64,000 nt of DNA, from NCBI GenBank assembly GCA_963764165.1, contig CAVXRD010000002.1:1504001-1568000 (forward strand), in the 5' to 3' direction. Both the position numbers and the translations under genes were made by a program. This DNA comes from an uncultured Verrucomicrobiae bacterium (GTDB lineage Bacteria > Verrucomicrobiota > Verrucomicrobiia > Limisphaerales > Palsa-1400). Positions 51,927-57,848 of the stretch are shown piece by piece; positions within the stretch are counted from its first letter, which is position 1, and every line of letters begins with the position of its first letter. Below the pieces are notes generated by a model that ran no database searches, was not told the DNA's origin, and was given only the letters and a program-made list of their open reading frames with translations.

Positions 51927-52691
51927 TTGGAAAGGCCTGGGATTTCTCCCGGGGGGCCGGGCCGCATCGCTGTTGGTAACAAGGACGTTCGTTGGGCAGC
52001 ACTGCTCGTCTGGGCAGGCGCGGACCCATTCCGCGTGGCCCCAGACAACCTTGAAGAGTTCTTCCCATTCGAAGCAGAAGAATGCGGGTGGTCAACCGCA
52101 GCTGCGGATGCAGCTTGGGGGCGTGACCCGAAGCTCTTGAAAGTTTTGCATCTCAACCCGACGGCTGAGCAAGCCGTTGCCCTGCTTGATGCGACCAGCT
52201 ACAACCATAACGTCGAACTGTTCAGACAATTGCTTCAGGTCATCCCACGCGAAAAGCTCAATCACAGCAAACGCGATTCGTGCGTCGCACTTGAGCGCTT
52301 GGTCGGCAGCCGGCCGGCTGAAAATATTTTCACTCGAATTCCAAACGAACAGGCGAACGTGGAAAAACTCCAGAGCATTGAACTGTTGCTCGATGCGGGC
52401 GCGCGCTGGAACCCGCCAGAAGAGGAGTTAAAAAGCGATCGACGATCCCTACTGAAACATGACGGGAAGCACATCGTGCAAGTGATCAGGCTGCTCCTCT
52501 ATACGCCAAAGGCAGCGGACGCCTCGCGAGTGCTGGAACTCTGTCGTTCGCAATCAGTGATTGGAAAGATCGCGTTAGTGGATGCCGCACTCGTGACGGA
52601 GCTGAAGCAATTACAGAGGCAAAACCGCGTCAATACCGGGATCCATAAAAACCCGGATACGGTGATTGGTGCTCAGGCGCCGGATGCCTGA
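51927..52691 (+). pseudogene. C-terminal fragment of an ankyrin-like helical protein
   Basis: LLVWAGADP and LLLDAGA motifs; no credible start. Confidence 0.5.
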
Positions 52692-52926
52692 ATTCGTGTG
52701 GCTTTAATGTCGTAACTTTCGGATACGGACCGCCAACTGGGATTTTTTCGGGATCCAAATTACGAACCGAGTTTGGATCCGGATAATTTTCGGACCAAGG
52801 CGCGAGTCTCTTCGCCTCAGATCGAGCCCAAGCAAGCCACTCCAATTGTTCCGGCGACGGACCGACCGCCGCACCACCGCGCCAATGTTTCTCCACCACA
52901 TCGACAAAAGCGAGAACGCGTTCGCT
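52630..52926 (-). pseudogene. C-terminal fragment of an unknown protein joined to the truncated TROVE gene
   Basis: RVLAFVDVVEKHW...WLAWARSEAKRLAPW begins at the TROVE break point. Confidence 0.5.
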
Positions 52927-53494
52927 GGGCGAGGCGGAGTAAGTCGCCGTGCGACCAACCGTCGCGCTGCTGATACTTCACCGCCTGGTGCGCGAGATCG
53001 TCGGCATCACGGTAAATGTACCAGTCGCCCACGGCGTTGCGCAGACCACGGCCCCAGCCGCGCATGGCATTCACGTATTCGGCGAAGTGGAACAGGTGCG
53101 TGCCAATGCGGCAGACCTTGTTCAAGTTCGCAAACGCGTGCGCCTTCGCCTGGGCGTCACCGTGCGTGACGGCGAGCGCCAAGCCGAAGATGGCCGAATC
53201 GTTCTTGGGCGCGCGGCCGGCATCACTGATCTCAACGATGCGGTTCGCAGCGCGAACGCCATCCGCCTTGATGCAACGGATAATCGCGTCGTGGTTCTGT
53301 TTCACGAGATCGCGTTCCGCGATGTAATACGTGCCACCTTCGGCGCCGAGGATCAGGAAACGGTCAAGCCGCGTCCAGTCATCCACTTCCCAGGAAAAGC
53401 CGCCGCCGGAGTTGCGAACCTGGGTCGAACCCGGGATCGGCTGCGACTGAGGCGTAATGCGGCGGTTGAACTGACGTGCGTAATTGATAGCCAT
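52927..53494 (-). pseudogene. rsr: Ro60/Rsr TROVE-domain RNA-binding protein, truncated after about 190 aa
   Basis: NSGGGF, RLDRFLILGAEGGTYY, RIGTHLFHF, GWGRGLR, KYQQRDGWSHGDLLRLA; AGGAGG SD; similarity stops abruptly. Confidence 0.9.
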
Positions 53495-53641: not shown

Positions 53642-53895
53642 TTATTTTATTCGCGGAAAAAAGTGGTTCCGCTCTCGGCCATCATAACGGCCTGTTTGCA
53701 TGCAGCATTTCTTGAAAGCTGCGTCCGGATCCGCAGGGACACGGGTCGTTGCGACCGAGCTTCTCGCGAAGCTCTTTGTTCGCATGCACGATTTGGAATC
53801 CTTTCTTGACTCGAGTCTCAGAGGGGAAACCTTTGCGACGTTTGCTGGTGATTTCGAAAAAAAGGCCCGTCATGTTCGTTTGATGTATTTGCCAT
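53642..53895 (-). CDS. SEC-C motif protein split by two +1 frameshifts
   Basis: AAGGAGG SD and ATG 53895; [15 protein letters not shown] in the +1 frame; FKKCC in the next +1 frame. Confidence 0.7.
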
Positions 53896-54731: not shown

Positions 54732-54872
54732 CGACGGATAAAAAACGAACTGGGAGTTTACGTGCTCTACCGCTGAGCTACTCCGGGTGTTAGCACACGG
54801 CCAACGCCAGAGGCTGGACTCGAACCAGCGACCGCGTCCTTATCAAGGATAACCCAATCCTGCGACCCGTCG
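54732..54872 (-). ncRNA. YrlA-type Y RNA with permuted tRNA-like domain
   Basis: CGACGGGTCGCAG..GGGTTATC, T-arm GCTGG-TTCGAGT-CCAGC, closed acceptor-like stem, D-arm TAGCTCAGCGGTAGAGC, 3' ATCCGTCG. Confidence 0.85.
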
Positions 54873-55013: not shown

Positions 55014-55091
55014 TGGACACTCCCGATGGGAATCGAACCCACATTTTCCGACCTAAAGCCGGACGTTCTCTCGCAGTTGAACTACGGGGTG
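55014..55091 (-). tRNA. tRNA-like gene with TTA (ochre suppressor-type) anticodon
   Basis: TCCGG-CTTTAGG-TCGGA, T-loop TTCGATT, bulged acceptor, CCA. Confidence 0.6.
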
Positions 55092-55095
55092 GTCA

Positions 55096-55223
55096 GATGG
55101 GCAAGTGGCGTGATCGAACGGAGGCACTCCATGCCGGGAATCGAACCCGGACCGCCAAGGCTTTCGCCACGGACGGTACACCCTCCTTATTTGTGGAAGA
55201 TAATCGATCAACTTCGGCCCATC
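55096..55223 (-). ncRNA. Y RNA-like gene
   Basis: GATGGGCCGAAG..GATTATC, CCGGG-TTCGATT-CCCGG, 3' CTTGCCCATC. Confidence 0.75.
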
Positions 55224-55227
55224 AAAA

Positions 55228-55303
55228 TGGTCAGGGCGACGGGATTCGCACCCGCACAGTCCGCGTCACAGGCGGAGATGCTCACTATTACATCACGACC
55301 CTG
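55228..55303 (-). tRNA. tRNA-His(GTG), atypical
   Basis: TCCGC-CTGTGAC-GCGGA, CCA. Confidence 0.75.
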
Positions 55304-55307
55304 GAAA

Positions 55308-55383
55308 TGGAGCCCCTGGTCGGACTCGCACCGACGTTTACGAGTTTACGAAACTCGCCCTGTTGCTTCTGAGGCACAGGGGC
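55308..55383 (-). tRNA. tRNA-Thr(CGT)
   Basis: CGAGT-TTCGTAA-ACTCG, GCCCCTG/CAGGGGC, CCA. Confidence 0.85.
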
Positions 55384-55391
55384 TGACAAAA

Positions 55392-55469
55392 TGGTGTCCG
55401 CGGCAGGACTCGCGCCTGCGACCTTCACCTTCGCAAGGTGACGCTCTGATCTAACTGAGCTACGCGGAC
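55392..55469 (-). tRNA. tRNA-Arg(GCG)
   Basis: TCACC-TTGCGAA-GGTGA, GTCCGCG/CGCGGAC, CCA. Confidence 0.85.
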
Positions 55470-55484
55470 AAATTGATTTGAAAA

Positions 55485-55595
55485 TGGCATCCGTGATCGG
55501 ACTTGCACCGAGTGCTTGCGCACGGCGACCAGTCCGGCTTGAAGGGCCAGTCGCTCGAGGGGTGGCCGTGCGCAAGCACCTTTGCATTCACGGAC
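55485..55595 (-). tRNA. tRNA-Glu(TTC) with two hairpin insertions
   Basis: CTGGC-CCTTCAA-GCCGG, GTCCGTG/CACGGAT, CCA. Confidence 0.65.
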
Positions 55596-55675
55596 GAAAT
55601 CCTCCAGGGAAGAGAACGCGACGTCGCCGCTCGCAGGCGGGCCTTAACGTTGTGCGCTCTCCTCTCTGGTAAAAA

Positions 55676-55750
55676 TGGCCCCTGAGGTCGGTATTGCGCC
55701 AACGTCTCTTCGTCTTCAGCGAAGCGCTAATCTGCCTCAGCTACTCAGGG
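55676..55750 (-). tRNA. tRNA-Phe(GAA)
   Basis: CTTCG-CTGAAGA-CGAAG, CCCTGAG/CTCAGGG, CCA. Confidence 0.82.
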
Positions 55751-55789
55751 GTGCTTGCGCACGGCCACCATTGCGCACGATCAAGTTTA

Positions 55790-55864
55790 TGGTCGTCCCG
55801 CACGGTAACGCTCCGCGGTCTTCCGGTTATCAGCCGGGCGCTCTTCTTTTGAGCTACGAGAACG
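55790..55864 (-). tRNA. tRNA-Ile(GAT), atypical
   Basis: CCCGG-CTGATAA-CCGGA, CCA. Confidence 0.75.
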
Positions 55865-55897
55865 TGAAAAGTGATGTCGTGCTCGGCCTTCGCTGAA

Positions 55898-56053
55898 TCA
55901 CGAATCGTTGGTCAATTGAGGTTTAATGCCGAAGCGATTGACCGGCCGAAACACGAGGTTCCACTTCGCAATCGGTCGGATTCGAATGGTTCGGCGCGGC
56001 TTGTAACTTCGCCGGTAGAGAAGGTGGCTCTGGAAACGGTTAACGGGTTTCAT
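55898..56053 (-). CDS. Small basic peptide (51 aa) inside the tRNA array
   Basis: GAAAGGAA SD, MKPVNRF...FRPVNRF repeat. Confidence 0.5.
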   Translation of the reverse strand: MKPVNRFQSHLLYRRSYKPRRTIRIRPIAKWNLVFRPVNRFGIKPQLTNDS

Positions 56054-56079
56054 GGTATTCCTTTCGTTGATGTTGAATT

Positions 56080-56202
56080 TGGCGGAAGGGTCTTGGCAGA
56101 CGGCCACCGGGTAACGCTCCGACCTCCGGTTTGAGCGGATTCTGTTTTCGGGACAGGCGCAGCCACGTGCTCGCGCACGGCCACAATATCTGCTTGCAGT
56201 CC
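56080..56202 (-). tRNA. tRNA-Ser(CGA) with two hairpin insertions, degenerate
   Basis: CTGT-CCCGAAA-ACAG, long variable arm, 3' TCCGCCA. Confidence 0.6.
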
Positions 56203-56398
56203 GCAAAACTGACTTTCAAACGATTTTCTGTCCATTAAGATTTCTGCGTGGCGAAGGGGAAGGGTCCGGCTTCCGAAAGGAAGCTTCCAGAGGCCGCGAG
56301 GCTGACCGAGCCCAGGGACTTGGGCACCGTTTGCGGAAATAGGATCAGGCGCAGACAATACCTTCGTCATAATCGTATCGGGCAAAAAGTTATCGAAT

Positions 56399-56472
56399 TG
56401 GCTGCCAGACTTGGACTCGCACCAAGACAAGCGGCTTAACAGGCCGCCGTGCTACTTTGACACCACCTGGCA
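56399..56472 (-). tRNA. tRNA-Asn(GTT)
   Basis: GCGGC-CTGTTAA-GCCGC, TGCCAGG/TCTGGCA, GCCA. Confidence 0.85.
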
Positions 56473-56479
56473 AATGCAG

Positions 56480-56617
56480 TGGCGCTGCCGGCAGGATTGA
56501 CTTCCCAAGTCCTGCAAGTCAGGTGCCCACATAAACATGTTCGCTATCGCGAACCGCAGTCTCACCTGCATCGTTCCGCTTAGAAGGCGGATGCCTCGTA
56601 TATTCGACCACGGCAGC
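56480..56617 (-). tRNA. tRNA-Arg(TCT) with an insertion of about 62 nt in the T-loop
   Basis: TCCGC-CTTCTAA-GCGGA, GCAGG...CCTGC, GCTGCCG/CGGCAGC, CCA. Confidence 0.7.
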
Positions 56618-56622
56618 AGAAA

Positions 56623-56714
56623 TGGTCGGAATGGCAGGATTTTCACCTGCTTGGCCGTCTGCAAAGACCCTCCCGGTCCCAGGCCGGGCGCTCTTAAGAC
56701 TGAGCTACATTCCG
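56623..56714 (-). tRNA. tRNA-Pro(TGG) with a hairpin insertion in the variable loop
   Basis: CCCGG-CCTGGGA-CCGGG, CGGAATG/CATTCCG, CCA. Confidence 0.78.
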
Positions 56715-56721
56715 TGAAGAA

Positions 56722-56797
56722 TGGCGGACCTGAAGGGAGTTGCACCCTCAACCCTCCCGCAGACAACGGGGCGCTCCGCTGATTGAGCTACGAGTCC
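56722..56797 (-). tRNA. tRNA-Asp(GTC)
   Basis: CCCG-TTGTCTG-CGGG, GCCA end. Confidence 0.8.
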
Positions 56798-56806
56798 GAA
56801 ATGAAA

Positions 56807-56896
56807 TGGTGGGAAACGCTGGTAATGCTCCAGTTCGTCACTTCCAGTTTTGTTTTGCGACACCCGATTTACAGTCGGGCAACTGGATCGCTTCCC
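56807..56896 (-). tRNA. tRNA-Tyr(GTA) lacking a D-arm, with long variable arm
   Basis: CCCGA-CTGTAAA-TCGGG, GGGAAGC/GTTTCCC, CCA. Confidence 0.7.
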
Positions 56897-56904
56897 TTGA
56901 AAAA

Positions 56905-56982
56905 TGGTAGCGGGAGTGGGAGTCAAACCCACCTGAAGAAGTTTATGAGGCTTCTCTCTGTGCGTCGGTCGAGTTTCCCGCA
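56905..56982 (-). tRNA. tRNA-Met(CAT) with 1:72 mismatch (initiator-like)
   Basis: GAAGC-CTCATAA-ACTTC, TGCGGGA/TCCCGCT, ACCA. Confidence 0.72.
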
Positions 56983-56993
56983 ATCAAATAAAA

Positions 56994-57068
56994 TGGTGGA
57001 GTCGGTGGGTAATGCTCCCACATAACCTTGCTTGCAGGGCAAGTGCATTGCTTGTCTGCCACGACCCC
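56994..57068 (-). tRNA. tRNA-Ala(TGC)
   Basis: CTTGC-CCTGCAA-GCAAG, G3:U70 present, CCA. Confidence 0.85.
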
Positions 57069-57075
57069 CGAAGAT

Positions 57076-57147
57076 TGGCAGGCTGCCTCCGTGCTGCCCG
57101 GAGTGAGCTGAGTTTTGGAGACTCGGCTGCGTGCTGACGCTCAGCCT
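57076..57147 (-). tRNA. tRNA-Trp(CCA), atypical
   Basis: GAGT-CTCCAAA-ACTC, AGGCTG/CAGCCT, GCCA. Confidence 0.72.
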
Positions 57148-57156
57148 GTGAAGAAT

Positions 57157-57230
57157 TGGTGCGGCTGCCGGGAGTTGCACCCGGACAATCGGCCTGGCAG
57201 GACGACATTCTGCTGTTAAATCACAGCCGC
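57157..57230 (-). tRNA. tRNA-Gly(GCC), first gene of the array
   Basis: TCGTC-CTGCCAG-GCCGA, GCGGCTG/CAGCCGC, CCA. Confidence 0.8.
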
Positions 57231-57575
57231 GGAAAGTAAGAGAGCCAGGAGCATCATTGCGCTCCTGGCTCTTGCCATTTCAATAAAGAACAAACACCTC
57301 TTGCTAGCTTGCGCTACCAACCCGCGGTTTCACGGCGGCTGTTTCGGTGTTTAGAGGCACACCTCCTGGGAAGCCTTTAGATTGTAAAATTCTTTTTTCT
57401 AGGCCTGGCGTAGCTAGCGACGATTGATAGACATGGACCATCGGTGACCAGCTATAGCTCGTCTTCGCTATTTTAAATTTGCTGCCAGAGGACATCATCT
57501 AGATGTCACGCTTTCTATGTTCACAGACTCACTAACCTTTCGTTATTCGCTTTTCATTTCGTCGGTTACGCAGGG

Positions 57576-57610
57576 AAAACAAAAACCCTGCTTACTTTCG
57601 CAAGCAGGGT
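57576..57610 (-). terminator. Intrinsic terminator (attenuator) in the array leader
   Basis: ACCCTGCTTGC-GAAA-GTAAGCAGGGT-TTTTGTTTT. Confidence 0.88.
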
Positions 57611-57634
57611 GGAGAAAAGGTCTATTTCAGTTCA

Positions 57635-57805
57635 TCACCTGCTTACAGCCAGTCTATCCGGATTGCCTTCGGTTTGTTTCCCGATCGAGGCCAAGGATAG
57701 TCCAAGGCTAAACACATAGCCCTGGTTGCACCGGCTATGACGTGTCGCCTTCGCGACTCGCATTGTCGGCCAATTCGTGGCTGATATGTTTAAGCAAGTT
57801 TTCAT
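57635..57805 (-). CDS. Putative 56-aa attenuator leader peptide
   Basis: MKTCLNISATNWPTMRVAKATRHSRCNQGYVFSLGLSLASIGKQTEGNPDRLAVSR; ends 25 nt before the terminator; last codons complementary to the terminator 5' arm. Confidence 0.7.
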   Translation of the reverse strand: MKTCLNISATNWPTMRVAKATRHSRCNQGYVFSLGLSLASIGKQTEGNPDRLAVSR

Positions 57806-57809
57806 TGAA

Positions 57810-57848
57810 CGTGTAAGACATGTAGCATAGCTCCTAGGTTACACGCAA
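57810..57848 (-). promoter_or_regulatory. Candidate promoter with overlapping inverted repeat (operator)
   Basis: TTGCGT-N18-TACATG with TG extension; CGTGTAA-N22-TTACACG. Confidence 0.45.

Follow-up and report, generated by a model that had tools for sequence, protein, structure and literature searches.

Ahead of a spare tRNA array in an uncultured Verrucomicrobiae bacterium lies a leader that is, in our assessment, probably a ribosome-coupled transcription attenuator acting as a general decoding checkpoint. The window (the whole stretch of 64,000 nucleotides that was analysed) holds its promoter, a short open reading frame (uORF1), an antiterminator strand at the end of that frame and an intrinsic terminator (T1), all on one strand (Table 1). 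In the proposed mechanism, a ribosome reaching the last five to six codons in step with the polymerase would cover the antiterminator strand, so that T1 folds and the operon stays off. A ribosome that lags, stalls at codons 1 to about 50 or never loads would leave the antiterminator to take the T1 5' arm, giving read-through. The leader peptide itself would be dispensable; by comparison of sequences, selection keeps at least one codon per amino acid, an internal Met included, and to a lesser degree one for each tRNA decoding class. The operon should therefore respond when almost any tRNA runs short, loses its charge or is cleaved, and also to ribosome drugs; each would be expected to turn on the spare tRNAs and RNA repair (e.g. 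RtcB, Ro60/Y RNA), and a downstream RNA, U2, may add a second condition.

Table 1 Features of the leader and its operon (positions within the window)
Feature	Position	Strand	Description
Promoter-like site	57819..57848	-	-35 at 57848-57843, 18-nt spacer, extended -10; aligned in 15 homologs
Extended -10	TG 57827-57826, hexamer 57824-57819	-	Part of the promoter-like site
uORF1	57635..57805	-	56 codons, all 20 amino acids
Antiterminator strand	57636..57646	-	Codons 54-56 and stop; pairs with T1 5' arm
Intrinsic terminator T1	57576..57610	-	11-bp stem 57610-57585, T-run to about 57576
9-codon mini-ORF	57495..57524	-	Stop overlaps uORF2 start; seen in close relatives, read from sequence and alignment
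uORF2	57304..57498	-	63-64 codons
U2 RNA	57277..57384	-	Conserved, about 108 nt, three-way junction, T-rich tract at end
Strong hairpin, weak T-run	57241..57272	-	Directly before first tRNA
Spare tRNA array	55019..57230	-	Nine ARAGORN genes and further degenerate tRNA-like genes
Y RNA-like gene	55091..55225	-	Deinococcus Y RNA model, 48.8 bits, below cut-off of 80
YrlA-like RNA	54758..54837	-	32.6 bits, below cut-off of 69
Truncated Ro60	52817..53494	-	TROVE N-terminal part only; the genome's only TROVE match

The 56-codon frame proposed in an earlier note on this DNA was confirmed, and the codon counts given there were right: 44 distinct sense codons covering the 20 amino acids, with five different Arg, five different Leu and four Thr codons. 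Under uniform usage 36.8 distinct codons are expected (P(≥44) = 0.003); given the frame's own peptide, P(≥44) is 0.024. Holding all 20 amino acids has P = 0.09 for the window ORF taken singly. Because this ORF alone gives only P = 0.003 for codons and P = 0.09 for the full amino-acid set, the case depends on relatives. In 15 close homologs the uORF1 start is fixed, the stop alternates between TGA and TAA, and every indel preserves the frame. The leader in the window has remained intact, with 84-86% identity to the closest relatives.

The strong intrinsic terminator and the copy of its 3' arm in the last codons were also borne out: the stop of uORF1 lies 24 nt from the T1 stem, and codons 54-56 (57646-57638) repeat the T1 3' arm. 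The arrangement of ORF stop, antiterminator and terminator is kept in homologs, where both helices covary. Across 33 diverse leaders, hand-chosen as alignable out of 52, the antiterminator helix was paired in 88.9% of cells and the T1 helix in 94.2%; changes on both sides affected 5 of 9 antiterminator pairs and 6 of 11 T1 pairs. Both helices beat all slid registers and 500 of 500 shuffles in cells paired and in covariation score, shuffles of a kind that kinship alone can beat. The best duplex partner of the terminator arm ended between -20 and +8 of the stop in 99 of 114 leaders, and in only 15 of 22 cluster representatives.

Folding with and without a ribosome footprint, as the earlier note had suggested, agreed with the proposed switch. 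The nascent RNA was folded up to the terminator loop with a footprint of 15 nt before and 12 nt after the A-site codon (a chosen value), as equilibrium folds of a truncated transcript. The predicted antiterminator probability was 0.87 without a ribosome and 0.86-0.91 with a ribosome at codons 1-49, and fell to 0.62 at codon 50, 0.27 at codon 51 and about 0 beyond, the near-zero value at the stop being a consequence of the imposed footprint. Ribosomes stalled in the middle of the frame left the antiterminator above 0.4 in 25 of 28 relatives. Because the nascent folds favour the antiterminator, read-through is the predicted default state, and only an on-time ribosome would close the operon. The fold of the 261-nt leader gave z = -6.0 against shuffles. 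A 1:2 anti-antiterminator (codons 3-5 with the ORF end) was rejected as the default; it appeared in the full-length fold and lost to the antiterminator in the nascent fold. No Rfam family identity (GOLLD, T-box or other) was obtained for the 600-nt leader. GOLLD (RF02032) had no match at E ≤ 10 in the genome, and the T-box none at E ≤ 10 in the window and none at E ≤ 1 in six relatives.

To follow the leader in other genomes, we profiled its occurrence by sequence similarity and then by a search pattern for distant loci built from the downstream part, U2. The 600-nt leader was present in 20 of 40 sampled relatives, 22 of 30 family genomes and 32 of 300 class genomes, in the last often only via its downstream part. 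The U2 pattern found at least 119 stretches in the species collection, and 74 of 80 titles among the matches listed name taxa that we take to belong to Verrucomicrobiota. It also found four viral contigs and 120 metagenome stretches. Loci with only 300 nt of flank were dropped (39 from the species collection, 40 from the metagenome set). The U2 model gave no match in 150 further sampled genomes of the phylum with 25 candidates scored per genome, which means not found rather than proven absent. At 114 of the 124 distinct anchors with enough upstream DNA a leader could be called, defined as an ATG-initiated ORF whose stop falls no more than 60 nt from a terminator; the other 10 gave no call. The leader ORFs span 29-62 codons, with stops 12-41 nt ahead of the terminator. 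Across Verrucomicrobiae, this order of promoter, ORF, antiterminator and terminator heads tRNA arrays or RtcB genes, with at least two tRNAs following the leader in 78 of the 99 loci where downstream DNA sufficed, and RtcB, HNH and Band-7 genes following it at other loci. Three contigs from the viral collection (L191, L193, L194) carry leaders of 51 and 55 codons, complete for the 20 amino acids, ahead of nine tRNAs.

A polymerase that passes T1 still meets U2, which sits 200-350 nt downstream of the uORF1 attenuator, and a second hairpin, a candidate second terminator or processing signal. A hairpin of at least 8 bp with at least five T was present in 51 of 108 loci. In U2, one 5-nt segment has two alternative partners, and some compensatory changes were seen (46 of 52 loci aligned). 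U2 may be a second gate or switch. It had no Rfam match in the window or in six relatives. The uORF2 frame is kept in close relatives and absent from most distant loci. As a second sensor of all 20 amino acids it was rejected (0 of 46 with all 20). Likewise, we did not retain the U2 tail as an rRNA-type boxA, its likeness to the rRNA leader being partial. Several partial U2 matches occur within single genomes (G007, G020), and two relatives (L034, L049) have a hairpin insertion between the two U2 domains. The RNA sequencing runs gave shares of 0.05-0.10 on contigs of relatives only, and their pile-up over 57290-57381 can reflect conservation alone, so they were given no weight.

U2 raises the question of whether the uORF1 attenuator is real but only a coarse first filter, the decisive element being U2 as a switch that senses a ligand, a tRNA or a protein, or as an antitermination signal, together with uORF2 in close relatives. 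Such a role would fit the alternative pairings and T-rich tail of U2, its being the portion matched in most of the distant genomes, and the 10 anchors where it stands without a callable leader. Against it, the uORF1 leader accompanies U2 at nearly all anchors and carries the selection signal described below, and the U2 switch pairs hardly vary, an invariance that is in part circular because the loci were chosen by the U2 pattern. We consider this arrangement unlikely.

The checkpoint reading is also supported by the amino-acid content of the leaders. All 20 amino acids occur in 84 of the 114 leaders. After clustering into 22 groups below 40% identity, each represented by its first-listed member, 14 of 22 held the complete set against an expected 1.3 (uniform) or 0.5 (composition-matched). 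Shifted frames of the same leaders held it in 0 of 22, in either frame, and genome controls in 94 of 3281 long-ORF starts and 99 of 7057 chance ORFs. Discounting the start Met and the final five codons left 11.5 of 22 clusters with all 20. A fresh metagenome set treated by the same rules gave all 20 in 37 of 48 new leaders, and in 5 of 9 novel leaders (less than 60% identical to anything earlier) against 0.56 expected; 16 of its 66 eligible loci gave no leader call. Trp, Cys, Phe, Tyr and internal Met were well above expectation with low variance: internal Met was present in 82-86% (50-57% expected) and Trp in 91-95% (56-60% expected). Val was below it (82-88% against 94-97%). The composition is flat, with a mean of about 1-5 per residue and about four Ala per leader. 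Of the 78 loci followed by tRNAs, 64 had the complete set; it was less common among the 14 without a tRNA call, some of them probably miscalled, of which 4 had it.

The leader peptides have no shared sequence across the 22 clusters. Over 52 tree edges, single-copy sites changed at 0.145 compared with 0.27 for the others, and when a single-copy residue did change, it was found at least five columns away in the relative in 70 of 82 cases, compared with 109 of 630 where the site was kept. This relocation is the same all-20 signal viewed differently, and it shows turnover rather than inheritance of sites. Taken together, and at the level of sequence comparison, these results show amino-acid coverage to be under strong selection.

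Sister attenuators offer a natural comparison. The window's genome has two more leader copies, one with U2 before RtcB and one without U2 before an MFS transporter. The first (L196:1000-3207) has a uORF that contains 18 of the 20 amino acids, and U2, then a 376-aa RtcB, with no tRNAs detected; the second lies at L195:1194-2760. The MFS-linked family comprises 13 loci (L195, L200, L203, L205, L206, L208, L210, L212, L217, L219, L222, L223 and L226), whose uORFs have 36-60 codons and 16-19 amino acids each. None of the 13 has all 20 (mean 17.2, 16.9 expected), compared with 9 of 12 U2-linked leaders from the same search. The MFS-linked leaders are shorter, but U2-linked leaders of at most 51 codons still have all 20 in 12 of 26. 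The MFS-linked attenuator, directly ahead of the transporter gene, is likely a drug-responsive efflux leader. At one further locus (L215), the same type of terminator follows an ORF rich in Thr and Lys and precedes an asd-like semialdehyde dehydrogenase gene; this is probably an amino-acid attenuator of the classical kind in this lineage.

These sisters bear on the possibility that the leader is a generic stall or antibiotic sensor, with its amino-acid variety a by-product of ORF length and RNA structure. That the same terminator family gates a transporter would suit such a sensor, as would the modelled read-through on any lag, even with no ribosome, and the induction of the Anabaena tRNA array by ribosome drugs described in PMC8421152. 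Against it, shifted frames, the reverse strand, chance ORFs, uORF2 and the MFS leaders were all at the null, while the rare residues of the leaders are regained at new positions. We regard the generic sensor as quite improbable.

How far the checkpoint resolves single isoacceptors is a finer question. In the window, uORF1 samples 31 of 32 minimal decoding classes and 41 of 45 anticodon classes, the latter number being reached by 1 of 1294 chance ORFs. The anticodon classes of the host set with no codon in uORF1 are Pro CCY, Pro CCA, Ala GCA and Glu GAG, and 12 of the 17 absent codons are U/C twins of codons present. The sole Asp (codon 50) is borderline for sensing: it and the AGR codons sit at or beyond the limit given by the fold model. 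Using the 32 minimal wobble classes, a grouping devised for this analysis, the leaders covered about 1.1 more classes than synonymous resampling gave (Z 5.5 with 43 clusters, 4.4 with 22), compared with Z -1.9 to 1.2 for shifted and reverse frames and -0.5 classes for chance ORFs; the novel set agreed weakly (Z 1.8, n = 9). Under the 45-class scheme Z was 4.7 and 2.7, and controls reached 2.2 (frame +2, 22-cluster set) and 2.7-3.3 (two sham groupings, 43-cluster set). Because frame +2 and the sham groupings also score under 45 classes, only the 32-class result is clean. All these Z scores overstate the effect because the clusters, being of common ancestry, are not independent.

Raw codon diversity as a selected trait was rejected; its Z of 0.8-2.1 was equalled or exceeded by frame +2 (2.6-3.2). 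Transversions to transitions at fourfold sites (77:87 in uORF1, 38:50 in uORF2) did not support selection on isoacceptors, and each of Ile AUA, Val GUR and Arg AGR was found in just 43-60% of clusters. The suggestion that the leader samples nearly every isoacceptor, with codon diversity in excess of controls, is thus moderately supported: with 32 classes roughly one decoding class is gained over the synonymous null, and the excess in raw codon counts is weak and not frame-specific. Isoacceptor coverage is likely, though partial. A bolder version of the checkpoint, in which the leader would be a purpose-evolved audit of the whole tRNA pool down to nearly every isoacceptor, the loss of a single tRNA, or its cleavage by a toxin or a phage-defence anticodon nuclease, would directly switch on replacements and RNA repair, and U2 would be a second switch in series, can be put forward only tentatively.

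The genes downstream of the leader match a long tRNA array (L-array): a long accessory cluster, with RtcB, HNH and Ro60 neighbours, redundant to a full housekeeping set (46 tRNA genes lie outside it). Stretches from each of 12 relatives gave 10-24 tRNA calls. The window array corresponds to the first half of the relatives' longer array and stops after the Y-RNA-like genes, while theirs go on with Cys, Leu, Lys, Gln and other tRNAs. The Y RNA-like gene is kept in 3 of the 12 relatives' arrays and a full Ro60 in 2 of 12 (562 and 592 aa), compared with about 210 residues before the window Ro60 ends. The operon of tRNAs, Y RNA and Ro protein that had been proposed thus holds for the array and the Y-RNA-like matches, with the reservation that both matches score below the Rfam gathering scores and that Ro60 is cut. 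The remainder of the operon has been removed by a rearrangement at Ro60.

Several further features of this region were noted. The cut Ro60 abuts an unrelated 254-aa ORF (51927-52691, plus strand) with no Pfam match. A tRNA-like gene with a TTA (stop-reading) anticodon (55019-55091, minus strand) directly follows the Y-RNA-like gene; it is also present in L231 and L233, and the L237 homolog has a different loop. It is less likely to be a suppressor than a tRNA mimic associated with Ro60. Inspection by eye showed, at 56480-56610 (minus strand), a tRNA-Arg(TCT)-like gene that seems to be broken by an insertion near the T loop and that neither ARAGORN nor Rfam detected. T loops reading G-T-G-C or G-G-G-C occur in several of the array tRNAs. 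A small SEC-C motif protein (53682-53873, minus strand) has the RNA genes on one side and Ro60 on the other, and an unannotated protein of about 200 aa with a basic N-terminus and no Pfam match recurs downstream of leaders (L196:3327-3962, L040, L047, L236 and L237).

The weak promoter and missing Shine-Dalgarno (SD) site, both raised as caveats in the earlier note, no longer count against the leader, since the promoter proved to be conserved and SD sites are little used in this genome. A consensus promoter scan of the window found nothing at the leader. A -35-like word was present at -65..-35 in 76 of 111 leaders, compared with 15 of 111 and 5 of 111 in two upstream control windows. We infer that transcription starts about 10 nt 5' of uORF1, leaving a 5' UTR of only about 8-12 nt without an SD. 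SD-like words precede 4 of 114 leaders; they are no more common before long ORFs (167 of 1562) than at control positions (135 of 1562), and because the genome hardly uses them, a missing SD is normal here.

Control might instead be exerted at this promoter by a TrcR-like repressor, with the leader only lowering basal read-through, or decayed along with the operon here. The Anabaena trn operon is described as controlled by the DNA-binding repressor TrcR (PMC10272220), a short motif is kept within the promoter spacer among close relatives, and the operon is truncated in the window. This is nonetheless very unlikely, as the window leader is intact and close to its relatives in sequence, and the full amino-acid set would be superfluous in a mere damper. 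That uORF1 encodes a functional small protein (for example a Cys/His/Trp metal-binding one), with the terminator merely ending its transcript, would agree with the slower change of Cys, Trp, His and Phe sites in close relatives (0.145 compared with 0.27-0.32) but is scarcely credible, given peptides without common sequence and without a Pfam match, residues that relocate, an ORF end that covaries with the terminator arm, and a divergence by codon position (0.15/0.15/0.21) that is nearly flat, unlike that of a folded protein.

If the checkpoint reading is true, it would answer how accessory tRNA arrays outside cyanobacteria get switched on, and the whole decoding capacity of a cell would be monitored by 170 nt of RNA and no protein. 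The signature, a drifting peptide in which "at least one of each" is held by turnover, would be an unusual form of selection and offers a simple route to such sensors in other phyla and in phages. It also makes testable whether spare tRNAs answer tRNA-cleaving toxins, and the leader offers a compact reporter for any translation block.

In the trpL, hisL, leuL and thrL attenuators, summarised in PMC10274678, ribosome position chooses between antiterminator and terminator. The window leader is modelled to work likewise, but its flat composition has no run of one amino acid, its relatives precede tRNA arrays, RtcB, HNH, Band-7 and Ro60 genes instead of biosynthetic or synthetase genes, and, untranslated, it is predicted to read through instead of terminating.

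Long tRNA arrays have been reported for Verrucomicrobia (PMC8421152, PMC10272220), and like those and the Anabaena trn operon, the operons described here combine spare tRNAs with RtcB, HNH and slipin/Band-7 neighbours. Control by a DNA-binding repressor sets the Anabaena system apart; the main texts of these two papers do not use "attenuat", nor that of PMC8421152 "leader", "terminator" or "uORF". The toiL uORF of E. coli topAI-yjhQ also senses several classes of ribosome drug, but it controls translation and Rho-dependent termination and has no Ala, Ser or Thr (PMC12121999). In the openly licensed literature we found no description of leader-peptide control of tRNA arrays or of leaders with all 20 amino acids.

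The earlier note knew of no described attenuator with this logic, but the whiB7 uORF of Actinobacteria works so, as described in PMC10274678. Antibiotics induce it, as does knockdown of tRNA, synthetase or biosynthesis genes for 18 of the 20 amino acids; it responds to amino-acid starvation and loses just the Trp or His response when those codons are recoded. What it senses depends on its composition. Only Cys is missing from the M. smegmatis uORF, and that of M. tuberculosis lacks several residues (PMC10274678). Like whiB7/wblC, the window leader joins a long, diverse uORF to an intrinsic terminator and a predicted antiterminator formed on stalling. Unlike the whiB7 uORFs, which are 25-40% Ala with coverage varying by species, the Verrucomicrobiae leaders are low in Ala and keep full coverage by turnover, and their proposed target consists of spare tRNAs, RtcB and Ro60 rather than a transcription factor. 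The window leader is therefore outside the whiB7 family, set apart by Ala content, downstream genes and phylum. The stalling logic itself has precedent; what is new is the selected, flat 20-amino-acid design, the spare tRNAs as its target, and the phylum.
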